Assembly (NCBI RefSeq): GCF_035594765.1 | Contig: NC_085842.1 | Span: forward strand, 301,739,749-301,803,748 | Source of the DNA: Anolis carolinensis | Lineage: Eukaryota | Length of the DNA stretch: 64,000 bases | Direction: 5' to 3' | Shown: positions 15,526 to 59,200 of the stretch, one piece after another | How positions within the stretch are numbered: position 1 is the first letter of the stretch | Layout of the letters: every line of letters begins with the position of its first letter | Program-made: the position numbers and the translations under genes | Notes under the pieces: model-generated | What the model saw: the letters and a program-made list of their open reading frames with translations, nothing else | Database searches by the model: none | Told to the model about the DNA's origin: nothing

Positions 15526-16460
15526 CATTTCTAATGCAAGCTTTCAAGAGCCAAAGTCCATTTTGTTAGATGTTTTCAGCCAGTAGTGCAAACAACTGAG
15601 GGCCCTTCTACACTGGCAAAAATCTCGGGAGATAACTGAGCATGCTTTTGGTCTTAGTCAAAAAGATTCATTAGAACAAGGTTAATTATACACATTGGAC
15701 ATAAAATAGCATTAGTCACACATTTTGCATTGGTTTAGCAGCCCTGAGTTCAGATGTCTGCAGGTTCAATCAGATATTTCCATCAAGCTTATTACAGACT
15801 TGGAAAACCTCCACTTTATTCATAGCTCTTCAGTGCCAAATTTAAAATATGGAACGGATGTTTTTCTTGCATGAAGTAAATCTCTTTACACAATCTCTAA
15901 ATGGTCAAAATTGGGGTCAACATCATTGGGAAATTAATAAAAACCACATGACAGAGAAGGCCTGCTGCACTTTTGTTCTCAGTAGATATTAGCACTGGGA
16001 CTGTTCTGTCTTGCTTACCATTGCTTTTAGAAGGTGAACATCAGCAAATATAAGAAGAGCCTCTACTTTCCTTGCACACATTGGGTAGGAACATTGAACA
16101 ATGCTTCTTTTCAGACTTAATCCAGCCTTTCCCAGAATCATGCACCATCCCCAAACCCTATGGTTGCTATTGTTATTTGTACCCTGATTTTCTTTCTAGA
16201 TCAGGACCCAATGTTGCTCACAACCTTAAAAACAATACAATTTAAAAACTACAAAATATAAATATTAAAATTGAATTAAGTATATAATTATTAGAACAAG
16301 TCAGTTAAAATCACAATAAAACAAATAAGTGAAAATTGTTAAAACAATTGAAACACCACATTTCCCATACCATACCTTTTGCCAGCTCAGTTGGGTTGTC
16401 ATGAGGGATTGGGGTTGAATCACACTTTTAACTTTTATCAGAAATAAATACCATGGAGAA

Positions 16461-16505
<45 letters not shown>

Positions 16506-17841
16506 CCAATCTCTGACTAACACTGTCCAAATTTTTAGCACCATTATCAGCATGGCATTGAAGAAGGGAAAAATCACTGAAACTGAGGGCATAAATATGC
16601 CTAATGGCCAAACAATAAAGTATCACCAGTCAGAGGCCTATAAATATCTGGGCATATTACAGCTGGACAACATCAAGCATGAACATGTGAAAACTGTGGT
16701 CAGCAAAGAATACACACAAAGGGTCAGAAAAATTCTCAAAAGCAAGCTCAATGGAGGCAACACCATCAAGGCCATAAACACCTGGTCCATACCTGTCATA
16801 AGATATACCGCTGGCATCATAAACTGGACACAGGTGGAACTGGACAATTTGGACAGAAAAACAAGAAAACTCATGACCATTCATCATTCACTGCACCCTC
16901 GCAGTGATGTTGACTGGCTGTATCTGCCTAGAAGATCTCGTGGCAGAGGACTCTTACAAGTAAAACAGGCAGTCAAAGAAGAAGAACATGCCTTGGCAGA
17001 ATATGTAAAGGAAAGTGAAGAACCTGCTTTGATTGAAGTCAAAAATCAGAAACTCCTCAAAGCAGAGCAGACAAAAAATCAGTACAAGAAAACCGCACTA
17101 CAAACTAGAGCTGACAGCTGGCACAACAAAACATTGCATGGAAAGTTCCTTGACAAAATTGAAGGAAAAGCTGACAAGGAGAAGACCTGGCTATGGCTCA
17201 CGAATGGGACACTGAAGAAGGAGACAGAAGGCCTGATCCTTGCAGCCCAGGAGCAAGCCATCAGAACAAATGCAAACAAGGCCAAGATCGAAAAATCAGC
17301 TGATGACCCAAAATGCAGACTGTGCAAGGAAGCTGACGAAACCATTGATCACATCCTCAGCTGCTGTAAGAAAATTGCACAGACAGACTACAAACAGAGG
17401 CACAATTATGTGGCCCAAATGATTCATTGGAACTTATGCTTCAAGTACCACCTGCCAGCAGTAAAGAACTGGTGGGATCACACACCTGCAAAGGTCGTGG
17501 AAAATGAACACGCAAAGATACTGTGGGACTTCCGAATCCAGACTACCAGGACCTCAAGATTGAACTTCAAAGACTCTGGCAGAAACCAGTGCAGGTGGTC
17601 CCGGTGGTGATCGGCACACTGGGTGCCATGCCAAAAGATCTCAACCGGCATTTGGAAACAATAGACATTGACAAAATTATGATCTTCCAACTGCAAAAGG
17701 CCACCCTGCTGGGATCTGTGCGCATCATCCGAAAATACATCACACAGTCCTAAAGGCCTGGGAAGTGTTCAACTTGTGATTTTGTGATATGAAATCCAGC
17801 ATATCTATCTTGTTTGCTGTGTCATACTATGTCATTGTGTC

Positions 17842-17893: not shown

Positions 17894-20800
17894 TTTATCT
17901 CATTCTGTCAATGAAAATTGCCTTACAGGACAGTTAGCGTCAGTTATCATAGCAGGCAATGCAAATAAATAAAAAGTGACTTCACTTTCCCCTCAGTTCT
18001 TCAAACAAACATGCAATGGGTCAGAGCTCAGCAACAATTTTTTTCATACTACAGCTGTCCTAATCTTCCAGCTGGGAAGTATGTTCATTGTAGTTCCAAA
18101 AAGGAATGTTCCAAGTTTTGGCATCAAAATTTCTTACCGATGCAAACACCCAGAAGGTTTTGAAAGGGGATTTTAATTATAATAATGGTGTGGGAAAATT
18201 TCCATATCTGATCTCCTGTAGTCATGGCAGGCAACTTCTATTCATAACTTCTACAAATGAATGATTACAACTTCAAGAGCTACCTTGGACGTTGAGTCTC
18301 TGAGAAGACCAGGATAATCAGGGTTGTGTTTTCCTTTTCCATTTTCATTTGGAGGCCACCTGCCATTGTGACCAAGACATTTGGGATTGTATAGGTGAAC
18401 CCAGAAATCAGATAACAACAGATTGTGTATCAGAGAGTACAGCAGTTATCCCAAAAGGGACATCTTTGTGTAAACCAAGCCAAAGAGCTGTGCTATTTTT
18501 ATTTATTCTTCACGCTGGTCAGATAAGGGAACTCATGTTGTCACATGAGTTGGTTAGGCAGAAGCCACAAGTCCTTCAAGTGAAAAGATTTCAAAATCAA
18601 CAAGATCACTGTCCTTGCTTTCTTTTCTTTAACCAGGGAGTCATTTATTTGCAAATAAAGCCAAAGCCGAGAAGAGCTGTTTATGTTGACATAAGGGTCC
18701 AGATACTTCAGTTTTATGAGGTTTTATCATTTGTTGACATGTGGGATGATGCTTTTTGTTTGTTTCTGGTGAGGTTTTTGATTTTTCAAGGAGAAAAGCC
18801 CATCAATTTGGAGAAATATTGGCAATAAGACAAATAAAATAAGGACTGAAACCTTTTGGGAATATTCATGAGTGCCCAACCCAGTCCTTTGGGAATACCC
18901 TACAGCCACATTATAATTTGTTCTTGGCATTTCTCCAGTTATTATATGCTTTTTACCCTTTGAGCTAAATTAATCCTCTCGTTTAAGGCTTGTTTATTGA
19001 TGTTAACAGCCATAGGCAAAAATATATTGCTGTGTTCCATCTTTTTGCATTTGTCTTTGCCAGTCACTCAACTGGGCCCCAAAGAACTTTGTTGAAATTA
19101 GTGGCAGCCCTTGGGCTTAAAAAGTATCCTTACCATTGGTCAAATAGTCAGCTCAATTATATGCCTGGGTGCCTTCCCATAATCCATTGCACTGACATGA
19201 AATTGACTAGTTTTAAAGAACCAGTTTCATTTCATTTCCAACAAATTAGCAAAAAAAAAGAGAGAGAATCTATATCTGGTACCCATTTCTAAATAAACAA
19301 CAACCAAAGTCTTAATTGGATGTCAGAAAATAAACTAAAGGGTTATCAAAATAAAATAAGCAGAACTAGGTGATGGAAATTCCCATGTGGTGGTTGTTTA
19401 TATTAGACTGTGAAAATTAGAGAAAGGAATAAAAAAAACAAAAACATTTCTTGGTAATTTCACCTGCAGATTGAGCTGTCAAATCATGCAGACAGCTTTG
19501 CTATTCTGCCACATCCTGCTTCTATATGCACCTGGGTTGAACCGCATGCATCTCAGAATGATGTGTTGACTGAAATAACTTCATTTCCTTCTTCTGGCTG
19601 CATTTAAAGTTTGAACTATTGTTTTATAACAAAATGGCAATATATGTATGCAAACAAAGTGGCAGTGGCGGCTCCTGCCACTTCTTTTTGTTTCCTCAGT
19701 ACTGGGACCCTAAACAGTTTTAAAAAATTAAAACAAAGGCATTTAGAAACACTTTAAAAGTAATCACTAAAACGTATTTATAATACGATTGAAATCCAAT
19801 TAAATTACCCACAGGATTAAGTCAATTCAAAGAAAATCTACTAAAAGCAAACTATAAAAACCAGCCAAACAGAACACTGTTAAAAGTTCTAGCAGCCAAT
19901 TCCAAAGTCTTTCAGAACAGCAATATTTTTACTTATTTCCAGTGGCAACTAGGGAAGCTTGCCTTAGTGTGATCATCATATAACAATCCCACATAGGTAA
20001 ATACACTTCTGATGTGTTCAGTTGATGAAAGAGATTTCTTCATGAGTAACACCTGTCAAAAAGGTTGGAAGCATTACTTTTATGGACTTCATCTTCCACA
20101 GTCCCAACACATCTGGTGGATACCAGGACTGGAGGAAGGCTGATATAGGAGATAGGAGCCATAATTCATGTAATGGTACACACAATAATAATGCATTTGG
20201 ACTTGATTTATAGGGCAGCCTAATAAAAATGCAATGGGAATACTCTGTCAAGTACATATAGATGTAGGATTGCAGATTGAATATTACAATCCATTTTAAA
20301 CAAAACAGAGATCTTGGTTTCTTAAACCACATCAGATATTTTCATTCAGGTTTGTTCCAGCTTAGGCAGGTGACCTGATTTTCATGTAGTTGACAATATG
20401 CAAATCCTCCTGTGTTTCTACTTGTGCATTTTATGTGGAACAGGAAGTTCTACACTGTTTGAATGTCAAATCACAATGAAAAGGTGAATGGTGGGGTTTC
20501 ATCATGCAAAATGCCACAACACAAGGACAAAGACCAGTGTTCTAAATATAGAAGATAACAAACTGAACCCAATTTGCCACCCTCCTTGTTTAGCCTTCTT
20601 CTTCTTCTTCTTTTTACAATAGAGAACATTTCTCAAGTCCTTTTGCATCTTTCAGAAAGGAAGAGCTGCTATAATAGTTCTGTTACATGGAGGACAATCT
20701 TCAAATCAATGCACAAGAGGCAGGGAAACATGTAGTTACAGAGGTAGTCAAAATGAGGGTTTTGCCAATGAATTTTTCCTTTTAGCCTCAATTTCCTAGC

Positions 20801-20935
20801 ATCATTGAAGTGAGACATGGAAAATCATGCATACCTTTTGCTCTTATATTTATTGTATTTGCATCTCCTTGGTAACTTTACCTACTCCTTTTCTTTGGAT
20901 GCCTAAACTTTATTTCTAAATGCTCAAATTATTGT

Positions 20936-21162
20936 CGAAGGCTTTCATGGCCGGAATCACTGGGGTGCTATGAGTTTTCCAGGCTGTATAGCCATGTTCC
21001 GGAAGCATTCTCTTCTGACATTTCACCCTCATCTATGGCAGGCATCCTCAGAGGTGTGACCCCACACCTCTGAGGATGCCTGCCATAGATGTAGGCAAAA
21101 TGTCAGAAGAGAATGCTTCTGGAACATGGCCATACAGCCTGGAAAACTCACAGCAACCCAGT
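20936..21162. mobile_element. Penelope-like fold-back unit (inverted pseudo-LTR pair)
   Basis: ~100-bp inverted arms around a short spacer; terminal gtcgaaggctttcatggccggaatc; direct repeat tcaaattattgt at 20924-20935 and 21163-21174. Confidence 0.85.
21012..21054 (-). ncRNA. Minimal type I hammerhead ribozyme motif (Penelope-associated)
   Basis: Minus strand reads cct-CTGAGGA-t-gcctgc-catagat-gagggt-GAAA-t-GTC-aga. Confidence 0.55.
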
Positions 21163-22134
21163 TCAAATTATTGTGATATAGTAATTAGTGTTAGCAGCCT
21201 TTGTCTCTCTATACACACTACTTGCTAGATTTCACGATACCCTCTAGAAATTTGGATACATCATATAGTTATAATAAATTCCTACTTGTTGGCCCATCCT
21301 GCACACACACATATTTTCTCTTGTTCTGCATTACTCTAACCTAAAGATATTTTCTTTTCTCTCTCTCTCATTCTTTAGACTCTATATATCAAATATACAG
21401 ATGTTATGGTAAGTAAAGGGACTTTAGTATGTTCAAAAAGGAGAATGACTTTCCTTCATTTTTGTTAGGCCCTCTGTGTGGGGTGGACATGGGACTGGTT
21501 GTTGTTCAGCTTCTGCCATGCCAATTGTTTCTTCTGTTTGAGAGATCTATAACTATCTACTATATTTTCCAGCACCCAACTATCTGGGACAGCTTTTGAG
21601 TGGCAGAATCACTCTGAGCTAGTTCTTTTGATACAAGAAGTTCTATCAGGAGAATGGTATGATAGATCCTGTCAAGGTCCATCTCTAACACATCCTTAAG
21701 ATCTTCTGGTGCCTGATACATCCCAACCATTTTGTTGTTAGGTCAGAATATACTTCAACCTCCACTCAGAGTGAAAACACATAGGTCATGTTATTTAAAG
21801 CACATGGATCCCTTTCTTCCTAACCATTAAAATACAGCAAGAATATATTGGGTAACTAACCATTTCTTGCCATGTCATTAACTCTGACAATGCTTCCTCT
21901 ATTGCTAAGGGCAGAGGAAGCTGAGGATAGATCTGCACCATTCACAAGTTCCTGTTTTGTTAATGGGAGGACACTAGCCTTCTGCTGAATTGCTTACATC
22001 AGCACATAGTGATTCGCCCAAGCACAGTTTGTTATAAGCCACCTTGGGTTACATTCTAGGAGAAAGGATGGCTGGACTGACAGACAATAGATAAATGTAG
22101 AAAAAGTTATTTGGGGAAAACAGTTTTAGATATA

Positions 22135-22712
22135 CAGTAGAGTCTCACTTATCCAACATAAGTGGATAAGTGGGCCCGGGCTGTGGCGCAGGCTGGAGAG
22201 CAAGCCAGCTGCAACCAGCTGCAATGAATCACTCTGACCAGGAGTTCGAGGCCTGCTCGGAGCCTATGTTTGTCTTGTCTTTGTTCTATGTTAAAAAGGC
22301 ATTGAATGTTTGCCTATATGTGTAATGTGATCCGCCCTGAGTCCCCTTCGGGGTGAGAAGGGCGGAATATAAAAGCTGTAAATAAATAAATAAATAAACA
22401 TAAACGGGCTGGCAGAACGCTGGATAAGCGAAAATGTTGGATAATAAGGAGAGATTAAGGGAAAGCCTATTAAATGTCAAATTACATTATGATTTTAAAA
22501 ATTAAGCATCATGTTTTACAACAAATCGACAGAAAAAGCAGTTCCATTCACTGTAACATTATGTAGTAGTTACTGTATTTACGAATTTTGCACCAAAACA
22601 TTGCAAGGTATTGACTGCATTGACTACAAAAACACTGACTACCAAAAGGCAGACTGCGTTGGATAATACAGAACATTGGATAAGCGAAGGTTGGATAAGT
22701 GAGACTCTACTG
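22135..22712. mobile_element. Tigger/pogo-like MITE with a nested SINE
   Basis: TIR cagtagagtctcacttatccaac / gttggataagtgagactctactg; TA TSD. Confidence 0.92.
22172..22398 (+). mobile_element. tRNA-derived SINE with L2-type tail (Anolis SINE2-like)
   Basis: A-box-like tggcgcaggctgg, B-box-like gagttcgaggcc; tail tgatccgccctgagtccccttcggggtgagaagggcgg + (taaa)n; target aacataa duplicated. Confidence 0.85.
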
Positions 22713-23387
22713 TACTGGGTGAGGAATCCTGGGACTATGTTATTGAACAGATTCCCAGAATCATTGCCACAGAAACAATCCTGAAATTGCTGGTGTCTTG
22801 TGGTGCAAGGAAGGACAGGGCTGCCTTAACCTGCCGCTTTGGGGTGAGATACCCTCCCACCCCCCACTCAGACCATAGAACAACCCATGGAAGAACTTTT
22901 CATGCTCTTTCCTCAGATCTGTTTTTCTAATGGTTGTTTCTCAGCTAAAGGATTTGTCCTGTTTAGCTTTTCCCATTCTGATTGGAAAGAAAACAGGTGG
23001 TAAATTGAAAACACCACCAGCAGTGAGGGCTTTTCCATTACAGTAGATCCTGCCACATTATTGCTGTCCCCTCTGTGCTGACTCTGCAGCCCTCCAGACT
23101 ATCCGTGAGACAGACTGCTGAGCTACAGCAAAAGCCTTCATTACTTGTGTCCTCCCTCTAAGGAAATTTATTGCTTTCCTAAACCAACAAATTAGTGGGT
23201 CAGCTTCTCCCGCAATCTCCACATTAGTATTGTCCCCTCTTTATCTGAAAACATCAGGTTTAAAGAAGTTGTCAGGTAGCCTATAAATAATGTTTTTTCT
23301 AAGGATACTACTTGTTCAAAGGTTTTAAAAGTCCCAGGTTCCAATACCTATTTCCAAAATTTCAATCACAGCTGCAGTATCTTCGTA

Positions 23388-23710
23388 CAGTAGAGTCTCA
23401 GTTATCCAACATTCGCTTATCCAACGTTCTGGATTATCCAATGCATTTTTGCAGTCAATGTTTTCAATACATCGTGACATTTTGGTGCTAAATTCATAAA
23501 TACAGCAATTACTGCATAGCATTACTGCCTATTGAACTACTTTTTCTGTCAAATTTGTTGTATAACATGATGTTTTGGTGCTTAACTTGTAAAATCATAA
23601 CCTAATTTGATGTATAATAGGCTTCTCCTTAATCCCTCCTTATTATCCAACATATTCGCTTATCCAACATTCTGCCGGCCCGTTTATGTTGGATAAGTGA
23701 GACTCTACTG
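23388..23710. mobile_element. Tigger/pogo-like MITE, same family as 22135, opposite orientation
   Basis: Same TIRs; TA TSD. Confidence 0.92.
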
Positions 23711-24570
23711 TATTTGAGTCTGAAAATCTCACAAGTGTATCTCCTTCAACTCTAATAGCATTACACAGATTTTTTTCAATAATGCACATATGCAAACTGA
23801 AGGCCCATGGGCCAGATCTGACCCATTATGTCATTATATGTAGCCTTCTGGATGTTGGACTACAACCCCTGTATCATCCTTAACATCCTTAGATATCATG
23901 ACTAGAGCTGATGGAAGTTGTGATACTGGTAACATCCAGAAGGCTGCAATTTGTTCTGTTCAGTCAGGGTAGTGAGCTTGAATTTGGATACAAGGCTTAT
24001 GGACAGGATGCCTGACTCTAAATGTCCTTTAACCTTTCTCTAACCTCAGAGCCACAAGTGCTGTTGGGTTGCAGTTCCCATTACCCCCAGTCCTCATAGC
24101 AGATTATCAAAAGTGATGGGAATTGCTGTTTAATAACATCTGAAAATCTAAACTGGGTAGAAACTAAAGAGCAATGATCACTTTGTAATTTTTTGTTAGT
24201 CCTCTGTATCCATGGATTCTCTAACTATAAGGCTGATATGGCCCTCAATGAAAATGGTTTTGAAATTCCTGCAATAATGTATCTTTTTAAATATATTTTT
24301 CAGGCACAGAATTAAAAAATACAATATAAATGTAATGTCACACACAGTTTTTTTTTTACTAATGCCAGTGCCAATTTCACTTTGTCACCTCTTACAACAT
24401 AGAAATATCAAAATAAATTATAAAAGTAAACTCTTTTGCAATGGACCAAATTTGAGATCATTTTAAAAAATTAGAACAGCAAATTCCTATAAGGCCAGAA
24501 TACATTTAAAAATTTGTTTGGCAAACTCCGTTTTTCAGGTCTGTGAACAACTGCCCTTTCATGACACTTA

Positions 24571-24720
24571 GGGCCCTTCCAGACAGGCCCTATATCCCAG
24601 GATCTGAACCCAGGTTTACTATTTATCCCAGATTATCTATCAGTGCAGACTCATATAATCCAGTTTAAAGCAGAAAACCTGGGATCAGATCCTGGGATAT
24701 AGGGCCTGTCTGGAAGGGCT
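24571..24720. mobile_element. PIF/Harbinger-like palindromic MITE
   Basis: gcccttccagacaggccctatatcccaggatctga / tcagatcctgggatatagggcctgtctggaagggc; left flank tta. Confidence 0.85.
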
Positions 24721-25333
24721 CCAAATCTTCTGATTGAGGTGACCATTTTCCTCCTTTCTGTGGTGCATCCAGTTCTAATTTTAGTTTTAAGATGCATTTT
24801 TTTACTTTTCATTTTCATCTTGTTATTACTTTATGCCGGATTTGTCTCTGTTCTGATTTATTTTGTTTGTTCTATTTTTTAAATTATACCTTGCTTTATT
24901 TTAAACCGTTCTGAGATTTTCTGTATGTAGTAATATAAAGACTTAAACAAACAATGCTGTTCACTGTCTCCTAAAACATTGTCACAATCTAATCCAGAGT
25001 AAAACCTCATTTTTTATTCCAATGGGTTTCAGAGTGCTCACTTAGTGTTGGAACACATCCACTGTTGTCATGCAGGAATAAAGAAGTGCATTGCAGCTGT
25101 ATAACTTCTCCAGACATAACTATGTCTGAATTAGTCACTCCACATGCTTTTTATAGATATTAGAAATGCCATTGTTTTGCTATTCACTATGGCTGCGAAT
25201 TACACAATTCCATCCTGTATGATACTTTCCCTTTCTGGGATGAAGCTCCAAAAGAGATAGTGATAAAATGTGCTCCTGCTTCAGAAATTACATGGCACTT
25301 GACCAGAAGTTACAGGTTTCCCACATCCCCATG

Positions 25334-25621
25334 TCCAAGCCTCTGGATTATCCAAGCCATTTTTGTAGTCTATGTTTTCAATATATCATGATATTTCGGT
25401 GCTAAATTCGTAAATACAGTCATTACAACATAACATTCCTGCGTATTGAACTACTTTTTCTGTCAAATTTGTTGTATAACATGATGTTTTGGTGCTTAAT
25501 TTGTAAAATAATAACCTAATTTGATGTTTAATAGGCTTTTCCTTAATCCCTCATTATCCAAGATATTCACTTATCCAAGCTTCTGCCGGCCCGTTTAGCT
25601 TGGATAAGTGAGACTCTACTG
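25334..25621. mobile_element. Tigger/pogo-like MITE, third copy, left TIR missing
   Basis: Aligns with 23388-23710; ends ttggataagtgagactctactg-ta. Confidence 0.88.
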
Positions 25622-27154
25622 TAACTTAATATAAATACAAGCAGATTCACATGTGCACATATGAGGTTCAGCACATAATGGAGGGATTTTTTTTAAAAAA
25701 AAGTTCCGCCAGATTTCTCTCTTTCCTCAATTGTTTGTTCAAGTTCTATTTAATATTATAAAGTGTAAAATTAACAGTTTCATTGAATTCTCATTGCTCT
25801 CCATTCATGCTTCCTTTAAATCAGCTGTGTGTTCGTTTCACAGCCCAATCAGCTGATCAGATGTTTGGGGCTTTTAAAATGCAGACATGTGCTGGAACAG
25901 TCTCCACAGGGAGGGAAGAAAGGAAATCACATTTTTTTTGCAAGTGCAGAAATATATAATGATGAAAACACGTGCATTTTCCAGTGGAATTGGGATAAAA
26001 GGGGACCTTTTTACCCTTTGTTTTTTGTCCATTGCAGCGAATTAGCACATATTTACTGCCAGTGTCATGTAGCCACTCTCCCCTCTTTAACTCAGAAAAT
26101 CCCATATTTTAGGTGCTGTGTAGATGGGCCCTGAGTATAATGGTGAAAGGTGAATGCATTGTCTATTTTGGAAGAACCTCAAAGAAGCACTGATCTTCTT
26201 TGCTCTCTATGTTTGGTGCCATTTCTAACCTTTTTGAATACTTGAGTAGAGGAATGCCTCTGTTGTCCTCTGGGGCAACCCTAGCACTTCCTCCTATAAA
26301 TGGAATTACACTGACCTTACCCATAATTCATATCAAAATCCATAATTTTGAACCCCAAGTTTCTTTTGATGTATGCATGAGGTCAATTTACACACAAAGA
26401 TATGGTATATTTATCAGCACTTTCAAGTTTTCCTTTGGTGCTCGGACTACACAAAAAAAAATCCCAATGTTACTGAATTTTGGTGGCAAACCACTAAAAG
26501 TCTTTCAGAAGAAATAGAAAATCTTCCTTTTAAAGCCTACATCTAGAATCAGCGGAAAACAAAATTTGGCAGTATGGATTAGCAGGCTGGTGGTAGAGAG
26601 CCTTAAAAGTGGTTCTCAGGACCAAGTTGCTTGCTCCGAGTACAGATAATACAGAGCTAGATGGATGGACCAAATGTCTAATTAAGGACAGTTTCATATG
26701 TTCCTAAGATAATGAAAGAAGGTAGGATAAAAACTTGGAATTCACGAGACAAGTAACTGCAAAAGTTGCATAATGATAAGCAGGTGCCAGGTCAGTATTT
26801 TGGAAATGTCTCTGCTGATACTGCGGCTTGATGTCATCTCAGATATTATTAGCCTTGAGCTGGGCAGTCAGATGGTTTATCCAGCTGTCTTTGTCCAGCA
26901 AACATCCTGAACCTAATGATCCAAACTTAATTTCTAAATGCATTCTCTGAATTTAGCTTTCACTCCTTTTAAACCCATCTGTTTTGCCTCACTAAAAGTT
27001 TTCTCAGCCATGACTATAAGAAAGAAACTTAAACACCACAGGCGAAACATATTTAGTTGACTGATTAATATTTTTGCTTAATGAGATGCATAACACATTA
27101 TAATGGAGCTAGATCTTTCATATGGGGATGTGGGAAACCTGTAACCGTCTAGAG

Positions 27155-27431
27155 GAGAACTTTCTCAACATTTCATTTTGGTGACATACCTTTTTAGACA
27201 TGCAGCATTTCATGACTCAGTATTTCAGTTTTACTAGCAGACCAGAGGTTAAACCAGGCCCTTATAAGACATATCGACACATACATAAATTGTAAGAATG
27301 AAACGTATGGGAACACAATGTCTCTCATGAAAAACTGTCATTTTATATTTTTTAAATATATGATTTATTGTTTATTTCACATAAAGGTTTCACCTACACA
27401 CTACAGTGGACACACAGTTTGGAAAACACTG
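27155..27431. mobile_element. hAT MITE (diverged)
   Basis: Right TIR agtttggaaaacactg, decayed left tttctcaac; imperfect TSD gtctagag/gtttagat. Confidence 0.55.
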
Positions 27432-27827
27432 GTTTAGATATTGTTCAGTGTAATTCCACTCGGCTCACTTGTAGTCTAACCATGATGGGAAGCCTACAAG
27501 TTGTCCTTCACTACCTTGGGAATAAAAAAAAAAACATTTCCTGATCAGCAGCTTTTCACATGATGGGTTGCAAGTTACTATACGCAAGGCAATGTGCAGT
27601 ATATTACTACATTTCACAGTTCAAATTGACATTCTACTTCCTGATTTAGTTGTGTGATAGCTTGATACTTTCAAAAAAAAATATGAGGGAAAGGTCACAG
27701 AGATGTCATGTCCTGATATCTGATGATAATTTCCTGCTTAACTTTTGATCAAGGTTTCTTTAGGAAAAGAATTCTGGATAAATTGTTGCTAATGTAAAAG
27801 TGGCAAAATTCAAATGTAATAATAGAT

Positions 27828-28144
27828 GGTAAAATCCCCATATCCATGGAAGATATGGACCGTAGTTATATGAAAAAACAGGTATGATCAAATGGCATTA
27901 AATTAGTTTACTTCTACTCCCAGAAAACCATTGAATTGTGTTGGAGGACCTAGAGATCCCTTGAGAGCTATCCTCTCTAGGAATTTGCTAGGTCCTCTAA
28001 AATAACGCTGTGGCAATTTACAGAGGAAGTATACCACAGAATTATCTGTAGGACATAGCAATTTCTATAGAGACATTTTTTTCCCTAGGCCCAAGTAAGT
28101 GAAACTGTGAATATGGGTTCTACAGTTATGGGAATCTTACTGTA
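27828..28144. mobile_element. Old Tigger-like MITE
   Basis: ggtaaaatccccatatcc / gttatgggaatcttactgta termini; internal gaggacctag/ctaggtcctc inverted pair; related sequence at ~9400-9610. Confidence 0.4.
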
Positions 28145-29443
28145 TTCACCCAACTATTTGCTGCTTAAATTTGCAAAGGCTCACCTGGTTCACCATCTGC
28201 TCTGATCTGCATATATCTTTGCAGAGCAGATGCAAGTAGTCTAAATTAAATATTTCATATCTCATTTCCCAGTGCCATTTCACATTCTATGGAAAAATCT
28301 CCACATGTGAGGTTTCTGTTTCAATTTCCAAACAGAAAAAAACCCTTACTTTATTTCTCTTTATTTTTGAACAATATATAAGTGGCTGTGTCGGATATTC
28401 ACTCAGTGCATATCTCTTCATCTTTTTGCCTCCAGTTGTGACCTAGAAGCTTTAGGGCACGAGACAGTAAGAGCTTTAAGGTAAAACATGCTGGTATTTC
28501 TGATCCCATCTTCTTACCTCTGGTGCCATCAGCCACTTGAATGTGCCCTCCGACAATGACTCTTAAATGCTGTTTGGCCCTCAAGCAAAAATAGCCCCCT
28601 ATTCTTGTTGTAGCACATAGTGGGAATGCAACCAGATAGAAGTTAAAACTATGTTCTTGACAAATGTGTTTGAAATTATGGGTTCCAATGATGTAGAAGG
28701 GTACTTGCCCAAGGACATTTTTCCAAGAACATTTTCATGTCTGGAGGACTTAGACCTGCTTGAGTTTACCATCACCTTTTAAAACTGCATATGAAAATAC
28801 ACCCATTTCATTTTTGTGGAATTATGTCATAATCCTACAAGCTTTCTTCCTCTGTTCAAGTTCTGAATCAGGTTGAAAACCTCCCCTGATTTCCTGCAAA
28901 GAAAAAAATACCATTCATACTTTTGTATGGACTTTTACATACATTTGCATTTTGTATCAATGTTTGTGCTTAGCGCACACACACACACTAACAAGCCATA
29001 CACATATATTTCTGTATAAACTGAAAATGAAAAAAGGAGAGAAAAACTTAGTTTCCTTCTAAAATTGGGAAGTCAAAAGTAAAAAGCAGACATTTATACA
29101 CAGATTCACTGCCCATAAATTGAATAAATCTTACTTAGCACACACTTCTTTCCCATCTCTATCTCTATCTGAATTCCAGGGGATTTTAACTTGTGCCTTC
29201 CTACAATCTTCATACTCCTCTTTTTAGAACATTTGGGTATGATGTTTTTCAGGTTTCCACAACGGCCCCAGGGCTGTTCTGTCACCAGCTCTTTATTGTA
29301 CGCTGCATCCCTTTCATCACACCCACCGGTTGTTCTTATCAGTGGATCAGGACATTTGATCTATGCCAACATACTATTGGCTTACTGTCACAGGCTGTCT
29401 CAGCCCTCCACTTTTTCTTCCTGAAGCTAATATTGATAGTTAC

Positions 29444-29653
29444 TAGGGGTGTGCAAAATGACAGAGAATTCTGTTCTTTTTCGTTCTGTTTTTGGGTAAC
29501 TTCTTCCCAAAACAGATACTGAACTCAGGGTTTCGAGTTATGAATCCAAATGGTCCCCCTCCTAATCTCCCAGAATCTTCCCAAAAACAGAACAGGGGAA
29601 CCCGAAATTCAAAATGAAAACAGAATGAAAACAAAACAGATTTGTACACTCCT
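29444..29653. mobile_element. hAT-like MITE with TAGGGGTGT termini
   Basis: taggggtgtgcaaa / tttgtacactccta; subterminal ttctgtttt / aaaacagaa repeats; no clear TSD. Confidence 0.55.
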
Positions 29654-30482
29654 AATTTCTGCTGATATCAGGAGGACAGCAAAAATAGCCTGGTTTTTAA
29701 TTTTTTCTGGGACCAATTTACTAAAATCTGGAACTCTTAAATAACATAGATGGCCTGATCATTGTCATTTGTGCCCCTATTTAATCTTTCAATCTCTATA
29801 TACCTTTTCCACCACCCTGTCTAAACCTATGTGGGTAAGGTTGCTCGATCTCAGACTTTCCTGTTTTCATGTGCCATCTTCAGGTGAGAGACAAAAAAAT
29901 GCAAATTCTCAATTTTTGTGGGGCTCAGATCTGGACAAAAACAAAGGAATTTGTGCAAATTATCAGCTTAGCTAGTGCAGCAGCCTCTCATTACAATGTA
30001 TAAGGATACCTTGATTTTTTTTTTTTGCTGCAACTTCCAAAAACTCTTGGTGGAGGAGAGGATGTATCTATGTATTTACTTACTTAGCTTCCTCCTTCTT
30101 TCCCAGTTGTGTTGGATGGATTTATCCTTCATTTTCTTCTCACTTTCTGGCAAGAAACAATAGGCTAGATTAAGTATCCACTCCACCAAACAAATGAGTA
30201 ACTATAGTATGATGACCTCGCCAAAGGCCAGCACTTGATCATAGGCTATGACTCGAGACCATAGGGCCTGGGATGATTCTGAACTGGCAGGTATTTCCAA
30301 TAGTGCACTAAAGTGGATCAGCTGTAAAGGATTATCCCAATTAATCCTCTGTCTTCCCACTTTTTTTTGGCTTTTCTTCTTCCTTAATGTTTTTTTCTAT
30401 CTTGACCACAATCTAATGTTGCTTGGCTTCACATGTCCAGTTTTTGGAGAGTATGGGGTTCAGATTGGATAAACATAGTCAA

Positions 30483-30718
30483 CGGGTTGTTGTGAGTCTT
30501 CCGGGCTGTATGGCCATGTTCTAGAAGCATTCTCTCCTGATGTTTTGCCCACATCTATGGCAGGCATCCTCAGAGGCTGAGACCCTTCAACCTCTGAGGA
30601 TGCCTGCCATAGATGTGGGTGAAACATCAGGAGATAATGCTTCAAGAACATGGCCATACAGCCTGGAAGACTCACAAGAACCCAGTGATTCTGGCCATGA
30701 AAGCCTTCGACAACACAT
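30483..30718. mobile_element. Penelope-like fold-back unit (inverted pseudo-LTR pair)
   Basis: Same sequence and architecture as 20936-21162 in opposite orientation; perfect 13-bp direct repeat taaacatagtcaa (30470-30482, 30719-30731). Confidence 0.88.
30591..30633 (+). ncRNA. Minimal type I hammerhead ribozyme motif (Penelope-associated)
   Basis: cct-CTGAGGA(30594-600)-t-gcctgc-catagat-gtgggt-GAAA(30621-24)-c-ATC-agg; stems I and II can pair; predicted cut after 30628. Confidence 0.65.
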
Positions 30719-31491
30719 TAAACATAGTCAAATTATATTTAACTTCCACCCCAGATGCTTCTCAATTAATTTTACTTGTAAATATTTAAGTTTTTAGAAG
30801 TTGTCTGGAGGTATTAGTCTTCCCATATGTAATATTTCCTGTAAACCTGATAGCAACACTGACTCATCCTGCATTACTTTTCTTCATATTGCTTCTTCAT
30901 AACACTTTCATAAATTTGCATAGCTTTCTCATTTCTCATCCATGCATGCCTTTTTTCAAGCCTACCTTACCCAGTTTCATAATCACTCCCTTCGCTGCTT
31001 TCTGCTCACTGTTCCTGTGTGTACAGCTTTAAAATTCCAGTTAACATTCTGAATAACAGTAACCTCCACTCATACTGGAGTTCTCGCATCTTATGTGAGG
31101 CTTTATCAAACTCATTTCTGTATGTTCTGTCTATGGATTGTCACACAAATTGCAGTGAGATGAGCACATCTACTGTCAGAAGCTATCACACAATGTCAAG
31201 AGCAACTAGCTACTAATTTGCCTTCCTCCCATGACTGTAGCACCTCTTTTAAATGATTGGTAAAACCCATTAATGCCTCCCAACCTTACTATCTTCCCAT
31301 TACTCACCTTACAGAGATAGGCATCTTCTGCTTCTGTTCTGATTTGCTAGCAGACATTTGGCATCAGGGAGCATGAGTCTTCTCCGCTCCCCCTCTTCCC
31401 ATGCTCACTATTCCCAAAGAGGTTGGTTTCCTTTTTTTCTATTTCATTTTATTTCTTCTTCTTCTTTGTATGTTTTGCAATTATGAAATTG

Positions 31492-31493
<2 letters not shown>

Positions 31494-31523
<30 letters not shown>
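31494..31523. repeat. (ca)n microsatellite
   Basis: Seen directly. Confidence 0.97.
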
Positions 31524-31527
<4 letters not shown>

Positions 31528-31924
31528 AGGTATGCTGGACTGATCCAGAGCAGTGCTGTTGTGTTAATACTGAAGATACAATACTGAATGCTCTAAAACT
31601 GGAATGTATCCGACCCCTTCCATTCAAATAGTTTGTCCTTACTTAACTTGGCAGTAGGAGAAGACTGAAAAGGGTAGAAACTTGTCCTTTCCAGTAGACT
31701 CAGTAAAAGCAAACTGTTGTAGCATGTGTGTTTTTCATCTTGACCACGTTTGCCATGTTGCTCACACTCTGATATTGCTTAGCCACATGTGTTCTGGTTT
31801 TCACTGGTGAAATGTTGGTAGGTATGTTTTTACCTGGAAGTAATTGCTGTATTGAGGAGATTTTGGATTCAGTTCATAATAAGCTAGAAAAATTGACTTT
31901 TAGAGGTGCATATAACAGACTTCA

Positions 31925-32253
31925 AGGGGCTCCTGATGGCACAGTGTGTTAAAGTGCTGAGCTGCTGAACTTGCGAACTAAAAGGTTCCAGGCTCAAATC
32001 CCGGGAGCGGAGTGAGCGCCCGCTGTTAGCCCCAGCTCCTGCCAACCTAGCAGTTCAAAAACATGCAAATGTGAGTAGATCAATAGGTACCGCTCCGGCA
32101 GGAAGGTAACGGTGCTCCATGCAGTCATGCTGGCCACATGACCTTGGAGGTGTCTATGGACAACGCTGGCTCTTCGGCTTAGAAATGGAGATGAGCACCA
32201 ACCCTCAGAGTCTGTCACGACTGGACTTAACGTCAGGGGAAACCTTTACCTGT
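31925..32253 (+). mobile_element. Full-length Sauria SINE
   Basis: tRNA-like head (tggcacagtgtgtt; ggctcaaatcc), core aacatgcaaatgtgagtagatcaataggtaccgct, accttt tail; TSD tataacagact(t/a)ca. Confidence 0.93.
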
Positions 32254-34066
32254 TATAACAGACTACAGTCTATAAAGATCATCCTTCAGAAAGATATTTG
32301 CTGCATGCATATAGTCTTGTACAAGTCTAGAAAGTCTAGGCAAAAATCAAAATCCAAACCCCATTGGTCAATGAAAGTATTGTACTCATAAAAAAGGAAA
32401 AAATCCATTCTCTGAGTATAGTGTTGAAAAGAGAAAGTTTAGTCCATCCTGGGAGAATATAAAAAAACCACCAAACCCCTCTTCTATGTATCTCCTTCAT
32501 GGCATTGCTTCTGGTGTTTTTGTATGACTAGGTAGGAAAATAGTGATGCTGGCAGCTAGCACCTTTCTCTCTCAATGAAATAACCCCTGACATATACATA
32601 TAAAAATCCATAATTTTGGCTCCAAAACCTGCTTTCGATTTATACATGAGGTCAACATATACATATGTACGGTATCTTTGAGGAATGAGATGTAGAAAAT
32701 ACACATAGCAAATACTTTTAAAACAGACAACTCTTTTGTAATTGGAATTGTTGTCATGAGCACACTTATTTCTGAGCAAAATACCTTGAACTCTGGCTCC
32801 TTAAATAATTTTTCCAATCAATAAGCTATACAGTATGGGATTTTAAGATATGTGAGGATGGTATTTTTAACCCTGCCATGAATCATACCCATATCTATAA
32901 CCATCTGGTATTTATCTTCTTAGAGAAATCTGAAATTCTTGCAAAACCCCCTTGGTGACATTGACTGTTAGGCTCATCCACCATGTTTGTGTGAATCAAG
33001 ATTTTAATTGTATTTGTCACCTTTCATTTATTTATGATTTAAGCAACTTAAGCAAACTAGCAAAACACCAAATTTCCTCTGAGATCTCCTGTAAGCATCT
33101 TTGTAGCAGTTACAGGAAATGCATTTGACCAACAAGGACAGCGTCATGTTCACCACACTGGTCTGCTCTCAGTTATTTGTTGGAACAACCTGTACACCTT
33201 GTGATAACTGTGAATGTTTGTATATTGATAACTTCCAAAGTATTGTGGTTAGAAAGCCTACGCAAAAACGTCATGCATACTGTTAAAGTTCTTTTACAGC
33301 CTTTAAGAGGAACTTTAAGTTTGCAAATTTAAAAATGGTATGTCCAGTTTGGAGCTTTCAGTGGTTAGTGTTAAAGACTGTGCTGAAATTATTGACATGA
33401 AATCATGCTTCACTGTACAACACTTCACTAATTTTCCTGCTTGTAGAAGACTTCAGAAGCTGCAGTTTAGAAAAGAAGGTGCCATTTATTAAGGCTTTAT
33501 TCCAAACTGATAAAAGAACTTCCAATTCGGGAGAGAGTCAATGGAGTCAATATTTGGGTTTTTTTGTGGGAGAAGCTTATGTGATCCATGGAGGATTCTG
33601 AAGACTGAAAATTGGTCCAGATCTCCTTAAATTGCCCACACATACTGGAATTTGTAGTTAGTGGGACACTGGCATTCTTTAGCATATTGGGCCAAAGGCC
33701 CAGTAAAACTATTCATCCCATGATTCAATGAGCTGTTTCTGAGATTATGAAGCATTGATTTAGCCATTAGTTTCCTGGTAATGAAATATATATTTATGGG
33801 CTGCAGATGCAATTTGCAGAACACTTTCTCGGGAGTTACATTGGATGCAGTGGGAGTTGTTTCCAAGGAAATATGTATCAAATTTTACTGCATGCCAGTA
33901 GTTTTCAAGCATACTGCTTCCAGACATTCCTTTCTACAGTAATTCCTATTATTGAAGAGGAACTTCTGCAAATTGATCACTAAATTCTGCAAAACGCAAA
34001 AGATTAGCAAATCTTTGGACATAATTGCTTACATTTACTGGTGAGGCCAGAAATAGGTTCTGAAGC

Positions 34067-34296
34067 CATTCACACTGCAGAAGTATAGTATTTTGACACC
34101 ACTTTAACTGCCCATGCTTCATTCTACAGAACCCTGAGATTTGTAATTTGTTGTGGCATCAGAGACTTCTGAAAGAGAATAACTATCTCACAGAAATAAA
34201 AAAAACAGATCTGTATAGCACTAAGCCTTGATAAAACCCAGAATCCCATAGCAGTTAATGTGGTATCAAAGTACTATAATTCTGCAGCCTGGGTGT
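34067..34296. mobile_element. Palindromic MITE (same family as 59-275)
   Basis: cacactgcagaa..tttgacaccactttaactgc / gcagttaatgtggtatcaaa..attctgcag. Confidence 0.65.
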
Positions 34297-34645
34297 AACT
34301 GTTTATTCCTGCTATTTCTATGGGCCATGCAGTTGAGTATATATGCTTGCAATTCTAAGCATTTCCTTCTCTAAGATGTAAACTATTGGGGGTTTTGAGT
34401 TGTGCAATTTTCTCTTCTCCTCATATATCTCCTCCTCCTGTTCCTAAAATTGTATGGCTAGTGAACTGTTGGTATCTTATGCATGTATAAATAGCTTTAC
34501 AGAATTGTTTTCCATCCTTGCATGGATTTTCTTTGGTAGCAATGAGGAATCTATTTATAGTGGCTTTTTATTATTGTCATATTCTTCTCCTATCCCAATT
34601 CCATATCTGTTTGCACCATTTCCCTCCCACTTAATACATGAAATT

Positions 34646-34646
34646 C

Positions 34647-34683
<37 letters not shown>

Positions 34684-34718
34684 CGCGCGCGCGCGCGTGT
34701 GCGCGTGTGCATGTGTGT
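34646..34718. repeat. Compound (ta)n(tg)n(cg)n microsatellite
   Basis: About 70 bp of uninterrupted purine/pyrimidine alternation. Confidence 0.95.
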
Positions 34719-35457
34719 CCCAAAAGAAAGCGCAGATTTACATTCCCAGCATATACATTTTACTGTGCAACTGAAGTGTATACAGGTTTACCAAATATAA
34801 TGCACTTGTAGCAATATATCTTTTCCCATATTTAACACTCACTTGTTACTTCTGGAACCTCTGCTTAACAATGTGAGGAACATTTTATTTTAGGCATAAA
34901 GTTGATGGCGGGGGGGGGGGGGGGCAGGTCTCCTGAAAAACCACAAACCAGATGCTTTTTCACTTTGAATCTACAATATTTTGGATGTAAGACTGAAACT
35001 AGCACAAGTCTGTGTTTTATTAGTCAAATATGACATTCTGGGTTTTTCCCCTGTTATTAAGATACAGAAGATTGTGCTTGTGAGACAGAAATGATGTCAC
35101 TACAACAAAATGCCAGGTAGAAATATAATTTGTGTTATCCAGCAACTCACATCAGGCAAGACATTTCTAAGAAAGCAGTCCCAATACAAATTGCTAACTG
35201 GAAACAGATGGCAGATTAAGCAGGCATCTAGTGGGAATTTCCCCCAAGTTTTCCCTGTATAACGTATTTCAGGAAGAATTGTGTTGGCCATTCAACAAAA
35301 TAAAACAAAACCCAATAATGCCTTTGTTGGCTATTCAAAATGCACAAAATACATTATGAAAGCTCTTGAAGCACCACTGGTTTCTTTATCATGCAAAATA
35401 TGTTTTTTTTAAATCATATAAGAAAATAAAAGAGATAACAGTGGAATCACAAACCTA

Positions 35458-36222
35458 CGAGGGTTGAATGAAAAGCAATGCCTCCACCTTCGTAACTCCT
35501 CAACTGATGGCAGTACTGGTATGCGGGAGGTACTGGCTTGCTCAGTAGACTCTCCTTTAGAGTTCCATCTGGCGGGAAGCTTTAGCATTGAACAGTTGTT
35601 AAAGTGTTGTTAAAGTACGAAGTATGGAACCCTGCACAGACTTAAGCAACGTGCTTTCATTGAATTCTTGACAGCAGAAGGTGTCACCCCAAAGGAGATT
35701 CATCAGAAAATGCAAGCTGTTTATTGTGATTGTGTTGATGTGAGTACTGTGCGTCGTAGGGTGAGTAAGTTTAAAGATCTTGAGGTAGGAACATCTGACT
35801 TGCGTGACAAACAAAGAGTTGGAGGTCCTGTGACAGCAACCACTGAGTTTCACAAGCAAAAGGTTGACAGATTAATTCAGGATGATCGTCGTACTCAGAG
35901 AGAAATTTCAAGCATAATCGGCATTTCACAAGAACATGTGAGTCACATTATTGCTTTGCTTGGCTATCAGAAGATCTATGCACGAGGAATACTGTGAGAC
36001 GCTGGTTGCGGAGACAGACTGTTAACTTCTTCCATGATGGCTTCAGAAAACTTGTTCATTGTTGGCAGAAATGTATCCAATTGTCTGGTGATTACGTGAA
36101 AAAATGAATAGCGGTAGTTAAGGATTACATTTTAAGGATTATTTCTGCAATTGATTTATTAAAATATTCCCATCCAAACCTAAGTGATGAAGGTGGAGGC
36201 ATTATTTTTCATTCAACACTCA
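35458..36222 (+). mobile_element. Internally deleted mariner transposon
   Basis: TIRs cgagggttgaatgaaaagcaatgcctccacctt / aaggtggaggcattatttttcattcaacactca; TA TSD; N-terminal HTH (EGVTPKEIHQKM..VY..CVDVSTVRR..KFK) joined to C-terminus (FFHDGFRKLVHCWQKCIQLSGDYVKK*). Confidence 0.93.
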
Positions 36223-40529: not shown

Positions 40530-41898
40530 GTTTATTCATTCAGTCAGGTTCCCTCCAGAGCTCCGTGTTGGCCGTAGCCACCACCAGCTCCTTCAAAGTC
40601 AAGCCAGTCACTTCAAGGATACCATCCATCCATTTTGCCCTTGGTCGGCCCCTCTTCCTTTTTCCTTCCATTTTCCCCAGCATCATGATCTTCTCCATGC
40701 TTTCCTGTCTTCTCATTATGTGGCCAAAGAACTGCAGCTTTGCTTCTAATATCCTTTCCTACAGTGAGCAGCCGGGCATTATTTCCTGGAGTATGGACTG
40801 GTAGGATCTTCTTGCGGTCCAAGGCACTCTCAGGATTTTTCTCCAACACCACGGTTGGAGCTGTACCACTTATGGTACAGCTCTCACATCCATAGGTTAC
40901 TATGGGGAATATCATTGCTTTAACTATACGGACCTTCACTGCCAGTGTGATGTCTCTACTCTTCTCTATTTATTGAGATTGGTCATTGCTCTCCTCCCAA
41001 GAAATAAACATCTTCTGATTTCCTGGCTGCAGTCTGCATCTGCAGTAATCTTAGTGCCTAGAAATCCAAAATCTGTCACTGCCTCCAGATTTATTTCCCA
41101 GTTATCAATCAGCTTGGTTTCCATAATCTTGGGTGTATTTTACGTTTAACTGCAACCCAGCTTTTGCACTTTCTTCTTTCACCTTGGTTATAAGGCTCAT
41201 CAACTCCTCCTCACTTTCAACCATCAAAGTGGTATCATAAGGTTGTTAATGGTTCTTCCAGAAATTTTAACCCCAGCCTTGGATTTATCAAGCCCCACAC
41301 GTTGCATGATGTGTTCTGCATACAGGTTGAATAGGTAGGGTGAGAGTATACAGCCCTGCCGTATTCCTTTCCCAATTTTGAACCAGTCTGTTGTTCCGTG
41401 GTCTGTTCTTATTGTGGCTACTTGGTCTTTATACAGATTTCTCAGGAGACAGACAAGGTGACTTGGTATCCCCATACCACCAAGAACTTGCCACAATTCA
41501 TTATGATCCACACAGTCAAAGGCTTTAGAATAGTCAATAAAGCAGAAATAGATGATTTTCTGAAACTCCCTGGCTTCCTCCATTATCCAGCAGATATTGG
41601 CAATTTGGTCTCTTGTTCCTCTGCCTTTTCTGAACCCAGCTTTTACATCTGGCAACTCTCGCTTCATGTATTGCTGGAGTCTACCTTGCAGGATCTTGAG
41701 CATTACCTTATTGGCATGTGAAATAAGTGGCACTGTATGAAAGTTTGAGCACTTTTTAGCATTTTCCTTTATTGGTATGGGGCTATAAGTTGAATTTTTT
41801 TCCAATCTGATGGCCATTCTTGTGTTTTCCATATTTGCTGGTAGATGGCATCCATCACCTTGACAGCATCATCTTTCAAGCTTTAAAACAGTTCATGT
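40530..41898 (-). mobile_element. 5'-truncated BovB (RTE clade) LINE with small deletions
   Basis: LISHANKVMLKILQGRL, AGFRKGRGTRDQIANI, CFIDYSKAFDCVDH, GIRQGCILSPYLFNLY, KAMIFPIVTYGCES. Confidence 0.95.
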
Positions 41899-52644: not shown

Positions 52645-52713
52645 GTTTCGTATAGTAGGGGGACATGGAAACCATAACAGCCAATATCAGGTCCAACGTT
52701 TGAGATTTCATCC

Positions 52714-52770
52714 ATTACTACTACTACTACTACTACTACTACTAATAATAATAATAATAATAATAATAAT
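52714..52770. repeat. (tac)n(taa)n microsatellite
   Basis: Seen directly. Confidence 0.95.
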
Positions 52771-54374: not shown

Positions 54375-54823
54375 CAGTGGTTTCCAACTTTTTGTTGACC
54401 AGGGCCCACTTGACCGGGGACCACTTTGACCAGCGACCACTCTCCAACATTAGTACCAAAAAGGTTATGAATACATTTTTGATCAACTTTAGATTTAGTT
54501 TGGTTATTAGGGGTACTGATTCAGAAAATTGCATTGGCTAGACCGCATCAGTTCTAGTTTCTGATACAGAACATATGCAATCCAGTAGTTGCCATCTGCT
54601 TGCCCAAAGAAAGCCATATTTAATAATCTAGAGCTGATGTGGTCTATCCAATGCAATTTCCTGAATCAGCACCCCAAATAACTCCAGGAACAGGCCTAAA
54701 AATGAAGCCCTGCTGAAAGGAGAAGAAAATAAATAAATAAATAAATAGGCAGGAGGTTTGTGGACCAGATTTTTGCTCTTGTGGCCCACGGCTGGGCCGT
54801 GGCCCCTGGGTTGGGAATCACTG
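54375..54823. mobile_element. hAT MITE with an internal inverted repeat
   Basis: TIR cagtggtttccaac / gttgggaatcactg; TSD acacagag/acaaagag; internal arms ~54510-54557 and ~54628-54675. Confidence 0.87.
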
Positions 54824-58864: not shown

Positions 58865-59200
58865 ATGAAGACCTGCTATAGCTTCAGTGGGGAAGAAGAC
58901 CAGACAAGCACCGCTCCATTGTGACTAAGGCCAAGAACTGACAGAAGGCCCTCCTCCATTGACTTGACCTCAGAGGGAGAGAGAAAAAGGCAGCCATGGC
59001 TCCATCATGACCATGTCCAGAAGCAGATGAAAAGCCCTCCACTTCGATTGCCTCTGCCTTGGCCTCATATGAAGAGACAGGCACAATTCTACCATGATGA
59101 GGCTCAGAAACAAATGAAAAATTCTCTGAAGATGCCAGCCACAGATGCAGATGAAACATCAGGAGAAAATGCTGCTAGAACACAGCCATACGGTTCAGAA
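58865..59200 (+). mobile_element. Penelope-like 3'/pseudo-LTR fragment with a hammerhead-like motif
   Basis: ttct-CTGAAGA(59126-32)-tgccagccacagatgcagat-GAAA-c-ATC-aggagaaaatgctgctagaaca..gccatac aligns with the fold-back arms; upstream boundary uncertain. Confidence 0.6.

Follow-up and report, generated by a model that had tools for sequence, protein, structure and literature searches.

A probably inert fold-back of two Poseidon front ends in the genome of Anolis carolinensis

Structure of the fold-back unit

A stretch of 64,000 nt from the Anolis carolinensis contig NC_085842.1 (the window) holds at 30483-30718 a 236-nt fold-back unit composed of two inverted front ends of Poseidon, a Penelope-like element (PLE), between direct repeats (Table 1). 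A repeat search delimits the inverted arms at 30474-30580 and 30587-30693 (107 nt, 90% complementary), a span that takes in 9 nt of partial match running into the left duplication. The earlier note on this DNA had described a fold-back of about 235 bp bounded by a perfect 13-bp direct repeat, and both the arms and the exact repeat are found. Terminal repeats of at least 13 nt surrounded 12 of 8000 random segments of equal length drawn from the window; these draws, like those made for a second copy described below, include microsatellites and the real sites. The duplications of the two copies are rich in A/T (10 of 13 positions in copy 1, 10 of 12 in copy 2).

The unit is asymmetric, since a tail is present on one arm only, and the end of the short arm coincides with the upstream end of that tail. 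The loop in copy 1 is the template sequence of the long arm. At 30586, where read depth is about 300 times the single-copy level, most family contigs carry a C (91-96% of depth in four runs), which completes the stem of the turn. The whole unit is predicted to fold as a single hairpin of -187.5 kcal/mol (z = -22.3; none of 200 shuffled sequences folded as well), in keeping, as a prediction, with the proposal that any read-through RNA would gain a hairpin of about 100 bp. Inverted repeats of at least 40 nt within 400 nt occur ten times in the window, and two of them are the Poseidon fold-backs.

Table 1. Poseidon-derived features in the window (coordinates count from its first nucleotide; + positions in the last column refer to the ORF)
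Position	Strand	Feature	Remarks
20924..20935	+	Left duplication of second copy, 12 bp	Shares as many as 4 nt with tail; chance 16/8000
20936..21162	-	Second, independent fold-back	87% identical; long arm on minus strand; loop ACCC at 21059-21062
21063..21162	+	Short arm of second copy	Belongs to fold-back 20936-21162
21163..21174	+	Right duplication of second copy	12-bp repeat of 20924-20935
30470..30482	+	Left target-site duplication, 13 bp	Exact copy of 30719-30731
30483..30581	-	Short arm, antisense Poseidon front end	Ends at about +84/+85; tblastn to P0001 residues 1-30, 80%
30536..30576	-	Minimal hammerhead, decayed	A in place of G at 12 (30546) and at 16.2 (30541); PAc template compared by eye
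30577..30590	+	Fold-back turn	4-bp stem, 4-nt loop ACCC (30582-30585); 2-nt AG common to both arms
30582..30718	+	Long arm, sense Poseidon front end	About -18 to +119
30591..30631	+	Minimal hammerhead, decayed	U in place of C at 11.1 (30620), A in place of G at 16.2 (30626); nominal cut follows 30628
30600..30719	+	First 40 codons of Poseidon ORF, open, truncated	32/40 identical to P0001 residues 1-40
30684..30718	+	Penelope 'tail', 35 nt, between two RT start sites	Long arm only
30719..30731	+	Right target-site duplication	First 7 nt against template continuation: 6/7 match
59124..59191	+	Single arm from a related subfamily, older and further decayed	CTGAAGA core, broken stem II

Family identity

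The 40-codon frame of the long arm was compared with longer proteins and matched one of four candidates, P0001 (E 6e-11, 80% identity). P0001 is an A. carolinensis protein of 836 aa with an RVT_1 domain (E 9e-14), DKG at residue 280 and YVDD at 506; a GIY-YIG-type motif lies at residue 700, and the Pfam GIY-YIG model itself gave no match. The rest of the ORF is absent, as a tblastn search of P0001 on the window returned only residues 1-43, at five places (E < 0.01), and the full ORF between pLTRs that marks an autonomous PLE is not found at 30483-30718.

The family is the one to which the characterized element Poseidon_Ac, or PAc, belongs: 114 of 128 nt of 30591-30718 are identical to the printed PAc template (counted by eye), as are 32 of 40 amino acids (PMC11167929). 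In PAc the ORF begins where stem II starts in the ribozyme, which cuts 26 nt past the start codon, and reverse transcription starts at +111-118, the 30-40-nt tail being the stretch between two start sites (PMC11167929). The unit shares this layout, with its start codon at 30600-30602, and its arm ends and tail agree with the PAc start sites, the position of the nearer site being deduced from the tail length. Unlike PAc, it has neither the ORF body nor the tandem pLTR-ORF-pLTR arrangement, and consists of two head-to-head stubs with a decayed core (PMC11167929). Both copies in the window show the inverted pLTR, AT-rich target and short duplication expected of a PLE. The Penelope origin proposed earlier is therefore upheld, and is narrowed to Poseidon by the 40 codons at 80% identity and the template match.

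Read depth over the element reaches about 7 x 10^4 (run X16) and 4 x 10^4 (run X11) times the single-copy level, ratios that give an order of magnitude and not a copy number, and this points to tens of thousands of Poseidon family copies. The sequence at 30483-30718 is very probably a Poseidon front-end fragment, and an inert one.

Other family copies in the window

The fold-back at 30483-30718 is not unique in the window, as 20936-21162 has the same build. Its long arm ends at +110-114 and its short arm at +87, and the turn falls at one and the same point of the template in the two copies. The loop of copy 2 is the template sequence of the short arm, so that in both copies the loop belongs to the right-hand arm. 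For the single arm at 59124-59191, neither a fold-back nor a duplication was found.

Palindromes are a known type of chimera, and an artefact of assembly or library construction might be suspected on that account. This explanation is next to negligible, given that the arms differ at 6 of 93 sites (three by CpG decay), that the duplication is exact and that a second copy exists. In run X11 a contig also spans the junction between flank and short arm in copy 2, with only 27 letters inside the element against a bar of 31.

Some contig joints concern arrangements other than fold-backs. Joints into 30587/30588 resemble head-to-tail tandems, and contigs link 30717 to 30587/30588 with 4-5 letters between, possibly reflecting head-to-tail stubs elsewhere in the genome. 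Such stubs, if real, could form dimeric ribozymes. A tandem reading of the joints at 21129-21135 was rejected, as they match the natural upstream sequence of PAc (by eye). The contigs of run X11 over 19500-35500 contain repeated GATC insertions, suggesting a proximity-ligation library and not real variants.

State of the hammerhead motifs

Both arms read CCT-CTGAGGA-T-stem II-(G/A)AAA-C-A-TC-AGG, with a stem II of 6 bp and a loop of 7 nt. The earlier note had recognized this hammerhead pattern on both arms, omitting the extra T after A9, a nucleotide known from minimal hammerheads (PMC4209133). Its assignment to the minimal type I class is confirmed by CUGAnGA, stem II, UH and stem I; the unit resembles the minimal hammerheads of metazoan PLEs in having CUGAnGA, the extra nucleotide, a long stem II, a short stem I and no real stem III (PMC4209133). 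The proposed cut site also agrees with the distance from the start codon published for PAc.

The plus copy keeps CUGAnGA, the extra nucleotide, stem II, GAAA, UH and stem I, and the minus copy reads AAAA, a change rightly ascribed to CpG decay. The claim of an intact plus-strand core is correct for the motifs that were named, but not for C11.1 and G16.2, whose substitutions leave a G-U at 10.1/11.1 and a C/A at 15.2/16.2. Because 15.2 and 16.2 cannot pair, the self-complementary stem III is lost in this copy. The plus copy thereby differs from other PLE hammerheads, in which the G10.1-C11.1 pair and the palindromic 15.2-16.2 are conserved (PMC4209133); the latter is kept in none of five arms. 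The core CpGs of PAc (C11.1-G12 and C15.2-G16.2) are lost in 8 of 8 cases in the four fold-back arms, and other CpG sites in these arms in 4 of 8 (by eye). Such a loss of core CpGs is what neutral decay, and not selection, would produce. Two-sided compensatory change was seen in 0 of 9 stem pairs over five arms, too few sequences to give more than minimal power. A search against Rfam covariance models, suggested earlier as a check, produced no match to a hammerhead family, at E <= 10, across 29000-32000 or within 30580-30720.

Folding energies, here equilibrium predictions that leave protein out, place the ribozyme fold 71 kcal/mol above the hairpin in copy 1 and 65-71 kcal/mol above it on all four strands. 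Since the arms stand head to head, the sense ribozyme is always transcribed after its complement, and prefix folding predicts that it pairs with that complement as the transcript emerges. The motifs lie on opposite strands, and each transcript therefore carries one sense ribozyme without a dimer partner in cis. The plus motif alone (30588-30640) can form stem II, with a mean predicted pair probability of 0.85.

These results bear on the earlier suggestion that a host transcript gains a working self-cleavage site, or a functional source of dsRNA or small RNA. The retention of CUGAGGA, GAAA and UC in the plus copy, the predicted stem II of the isolated motif and the scores of the hairpin against microRNA models speak for it. 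The loss of C11.1 and G16.2, the missing cis partner and the penalty of 71 kcal/mol tell against cleavage; moreover, minimal hammerheads are inactive as monomers and weak as dimers (PMC4209133), and the PAc ribozyme, although intact, required PAc protein to cleave, and insertion in vitro could do without it (PMC11167929). As no host exon was found in the window and the microRNA scores lie far below their gathering thresholds and vanish when one arm is taken alone, a host function of this kind is very improbable. The folding predictions and the damage to core and stem III argue that the 236-base palindrome is most likely inert today.

Host context and microRNA matches

The absence of a host exon refers to a Pfam scan and a splice-site scan of the window, which would miss short exons. 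The Pfam scan covered 204 of the 224 stop-to-stop frames of at least 62 aa; the other 20 fall in a GC-rich repeat (about 12.5-13 kb) and within LINE remnants (14-17.3 and 40.7-41.7 kb). Matches were obtained in 5 of the 204 frames, and only an RT remnant exceeded the cut-off; weak matches to models other than transposons, at 35412-35609 and 52646-52918, both fell below it. The splice-site script, a crude one, gave 16 candidates in the window, none near the element. Runs X17 and X19, taken as RNA only by guess, cover the flanks thinly and are uninformative on expression either way.

The window contains several other repeats. The segment 12388-13086 is rich in GC and CpG, with 21-nt tandem units, nested inverted repeats and no Pfam match. 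A LINE remnant lies at 16432-17610 (zf-RVT, below cut-off), an RT remnant at 41224-41868 and a mariner-like HTH transposase piece at 35614-35997 (below cut-off). Short inverted-repeat elements, likely of MITE type, are located at 66-273, 1957-2085, 2216-2603, 24559-24733 and 54503-54682.

Among microRNA models, mir-1295 (Rfam RF03681) scores at best 47.5 bits at 30537-30631 against a gathering threshold of 100, and mir-2041 scores 50.3 bits on copy 2 against a threshold of 70. A relationship to mir-1295 was rejected, as the match needs both arms and another microRNA model scores equally on copy 2. The name mir-1295 had 0 matches in the three supplementary files on TE-derived microRNAs that were searched (PMC4482582). 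Its consensus is a palindrome with outward GAAA-U-GUC-like ends and the same geometry as the stubs, agreeing with one arm at 17 of 25 letters (by eye), and mir-2041 also contains a GAAACGU stretch. As a weak lead, mir-1295 and mir-2041 might be old Penelope fold-backs. UCON13 is classed as Penelope, and no tie of Eulor or UCON elements to 30483-30718 emerged.

Formation of the fold-back

The locus probably represents a decayed head-to-head pair of Poseidon front ends within a 13-bp duplication, likely produced by one insertion and likely inert. That the unit arrived in a single event, as first proposed, is borne out by the exact duplications around both copies and by the relations among the arms. 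Over 93 aligned columns, six group the arms by element and two by arm type, these two being a single CpG; half of the six can be CpG effects. The grouping by element implies that each pair of arms derives from one template lineage or was homogenized later, and gene conversion between arms could be an alternative source of it. As for an empty site, none of the 15 contig joints listed (there are 911 further) skips the element.

Two-ended priming from both target nicks has about an even chance of being what made the stubs. The Poseidon protein, a predicted dimer, would make a staggered cut in the target, and both target 3' ends would prime reverse transcription on element RNA. One end would start at the far site (+111-119), giving the long arm with its tail, and the other at the near site (+84-87), giving the short arm. 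Both cDNAs would pass the uncut ribozyme and, probably on reaching the RNA 5' end, stop some 5-11 nt to the 5' side of stem I. Joining by 1-2 nt of microhomology would leave the 4-nt loop, and repair would fill in the target duplication. CpG decay has since struck the ribozyme core, and read-through RNA is predicted to take the form of a single hairpin of about 100 bp and not that of a ribozyme. On such a course of events, the sole reason for a ribozyme motif on both strands would be that it lies in the copied stretch. In vitro PAc, a predicted dimer, cuts both strands and extends each of them from the same start sites (PMC11167929). The mechanism as a whole is built on two elements.

The fixed length of the stubs may reflect the start of transcription. 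An initiator-like stretch, and a TATA-like run about 30 nt upstream, are visible by eye in the PAc template at the turn point, and an RNA start there would explain the constant length. The Penelope promoter of D. virilis is described as lacking a TATA box, and its start lies 46 bp ahead of the intron.

The target sites provide a second line of evidence. The target beside the long arm, at 30719-30725, agrees with the continuation of the template at six of seven positions, and that of copy 2 at 9 of 12 (12 of 16 over 20920-20935); this likeness was noticed after the fact, in two elements. The tblastn alignment runs into both duplications, consistent with such a likeness. At a fixed register, the chance of the match is 0.2% for copy 1 and 0.1% for copy 2; if the register is left free, it becomes about 3% for copy 1, and copy 2 is unremarkable (5 of 7 on the 7-nt statistic). 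The short-arm junctions show no likeness between target and template (by eye). A fuller version of the mechanism is offered tentatively, in which the stubs would result from symmetric two-ended target-primed reverse transcription (TPRT) by a Poseidon dimer. Both nicks would prime at the internal start sites, each cDNA would extend until it left the 5' end of the RNA some 20 nt ahead of the start codon, and targets able to pair with the template would be selected at the end that carries the tail.

The main rival concerns the mechanism and not the identity of the element, which would be the same and equally inert. Antisense pLTR RNA would prime itself at its folded 3' end, and EN would trim the resulting hairpin at the tail sites and insert it. 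Self-priming has been proposed for head-to-head Penelope palindromes (Arkhipova, 2013; PMC3846280), and the occurrence of the tail at either end has been ascribed to resolution by EN (Craig, 2021; PMC8557442). It explains the variants shared by the arms and a 4-nt loop in either orientation and, with trimming of the ends, fits both copies. However, the ends of the PAc tail are RT starts on sense RNA, primed at nicks on both strands (PMC11167929), and both long-arm targets resemble the sense template past the junction, as target priming expects; antisense self-priming appears somewhat unlikely.

A simple snap-back, in which a single target-primed cDNA reaches the template end, folds back and is copied, is quite unlikely. 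It would suit copy 1, in which the arm extending furthest 5' is the long one and pairing of 2 nt (AG/CT) could close the 4-nt loop. It fails for copy 2, whose loop belongs to the short arm and whose other arm is longer than the supposed template: a first strand from the short arm has no tail to copy back.

The fold-back could also be mobile in itself, spreading whole as a non-autonomous unit of a MITE-like or retrozyme-like kind. Two near-equal units with the same 4-nt loop within 64 kb would be expected of such a unit, and non-autonomous derivatives of pLTRs exist. Yet the orientation of loop relative to tail is opposite in the two copies, and their arm ends (+84/+119 versus +87/+110-114) and duplication lengths differ. 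Retrozymes, moreover, are described as head-to-tail tandems with sense ribozymes, whereas here the ribozyme is predicted to be unable to form, which makes this reading distinctly improbable.

Relation to known systems

The arrangement that two-ended priming is invoked to explain is already known, a typical Penelope insertion consisting of head-to-head pLTRs with a palindrome, a one-sided tail and a short duplication. The inverted-pLTR units of EN+ PLEs are likewise head-to-head, with a junction palindrome and a tail at one end, and the rotifer examples have duplications of 8-10 bp as against 12-13 bp here (PMC3846280, PMC8557442, PMC2377424). Compared with these units, the present one is the shortest possible form, comprising only two front ends. 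In Schistosoma, pairs of minimal hammerheads on opposite strands have been reported 100-700 bp apart; the motifs described here are separated by only 14 nt (PMC4209133).

Non-LTR retrozymes are also non-coding, related to pLTRs and hammerhead-bearing, but they are tandem sense repeats, and the present unit is an inverted pair with a sequestered ribozyme (bioRxiv 10.64898/2026.07.22.740005). No tandem array of the retrozyme kind is found at 30483-30718, where the two arms form a head-to-head pair.

In L1 twin priming, both target nicks prime and an inversion arises inside the target duplication, the two cDNAs copying different parts of one RNA. In the Poseidon arms, by contrast, a single stretch is copied twice, and this would call for a second RNA or a second pass.

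The available text of the PAc paper gives no account of ORF-less palindromes or of the origin of inverted arms; its Fig. S2 maps genomic ends and may show such stubs (Frangieh, 2024; PMC11167929). The same paper states that homology is not required for priming (PMC11167929), whereas in the present copies the target beside each long arm is similar to the template. No description of ORF-less lizard Penelope stubs or of twin priming in PLEs was found in the literature searched, which was covered in part, with Repbase outside it; the comparison also took in PMC5753468, PMC7561263, PMC9004415, PMC8969392 and PMC3245920. A scan for the fold-back pattern gave 0 matches in the viral_contigs and 0 in the genome_contigs, and the sole match in the metagenome_contigs, L001, was set aside as a GC-rich, unrelated palindrome.

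Significance

The sequence at 30483-30718 is ordinary, and the locus itself matters little, being one among very many dead copies of a characterized retrotransposon. Its value lies in evidence on how the inverted structure forms, a question identified as open by Craig (2021) and Frangieh (2024). If the symmetric two-ended TPRT proposed here is correct, it would account for the inverted, head-to-head build of Penelope-like elements, and priming guided by pairing would be at odds with the view that homology is not required. The lizard palindromes, in their tens of thousands, would then be a ready data set. More speculatively, much dsRNA in lizard pre-mRNA could stem from many near-perfect hairpins of about 100 bp.
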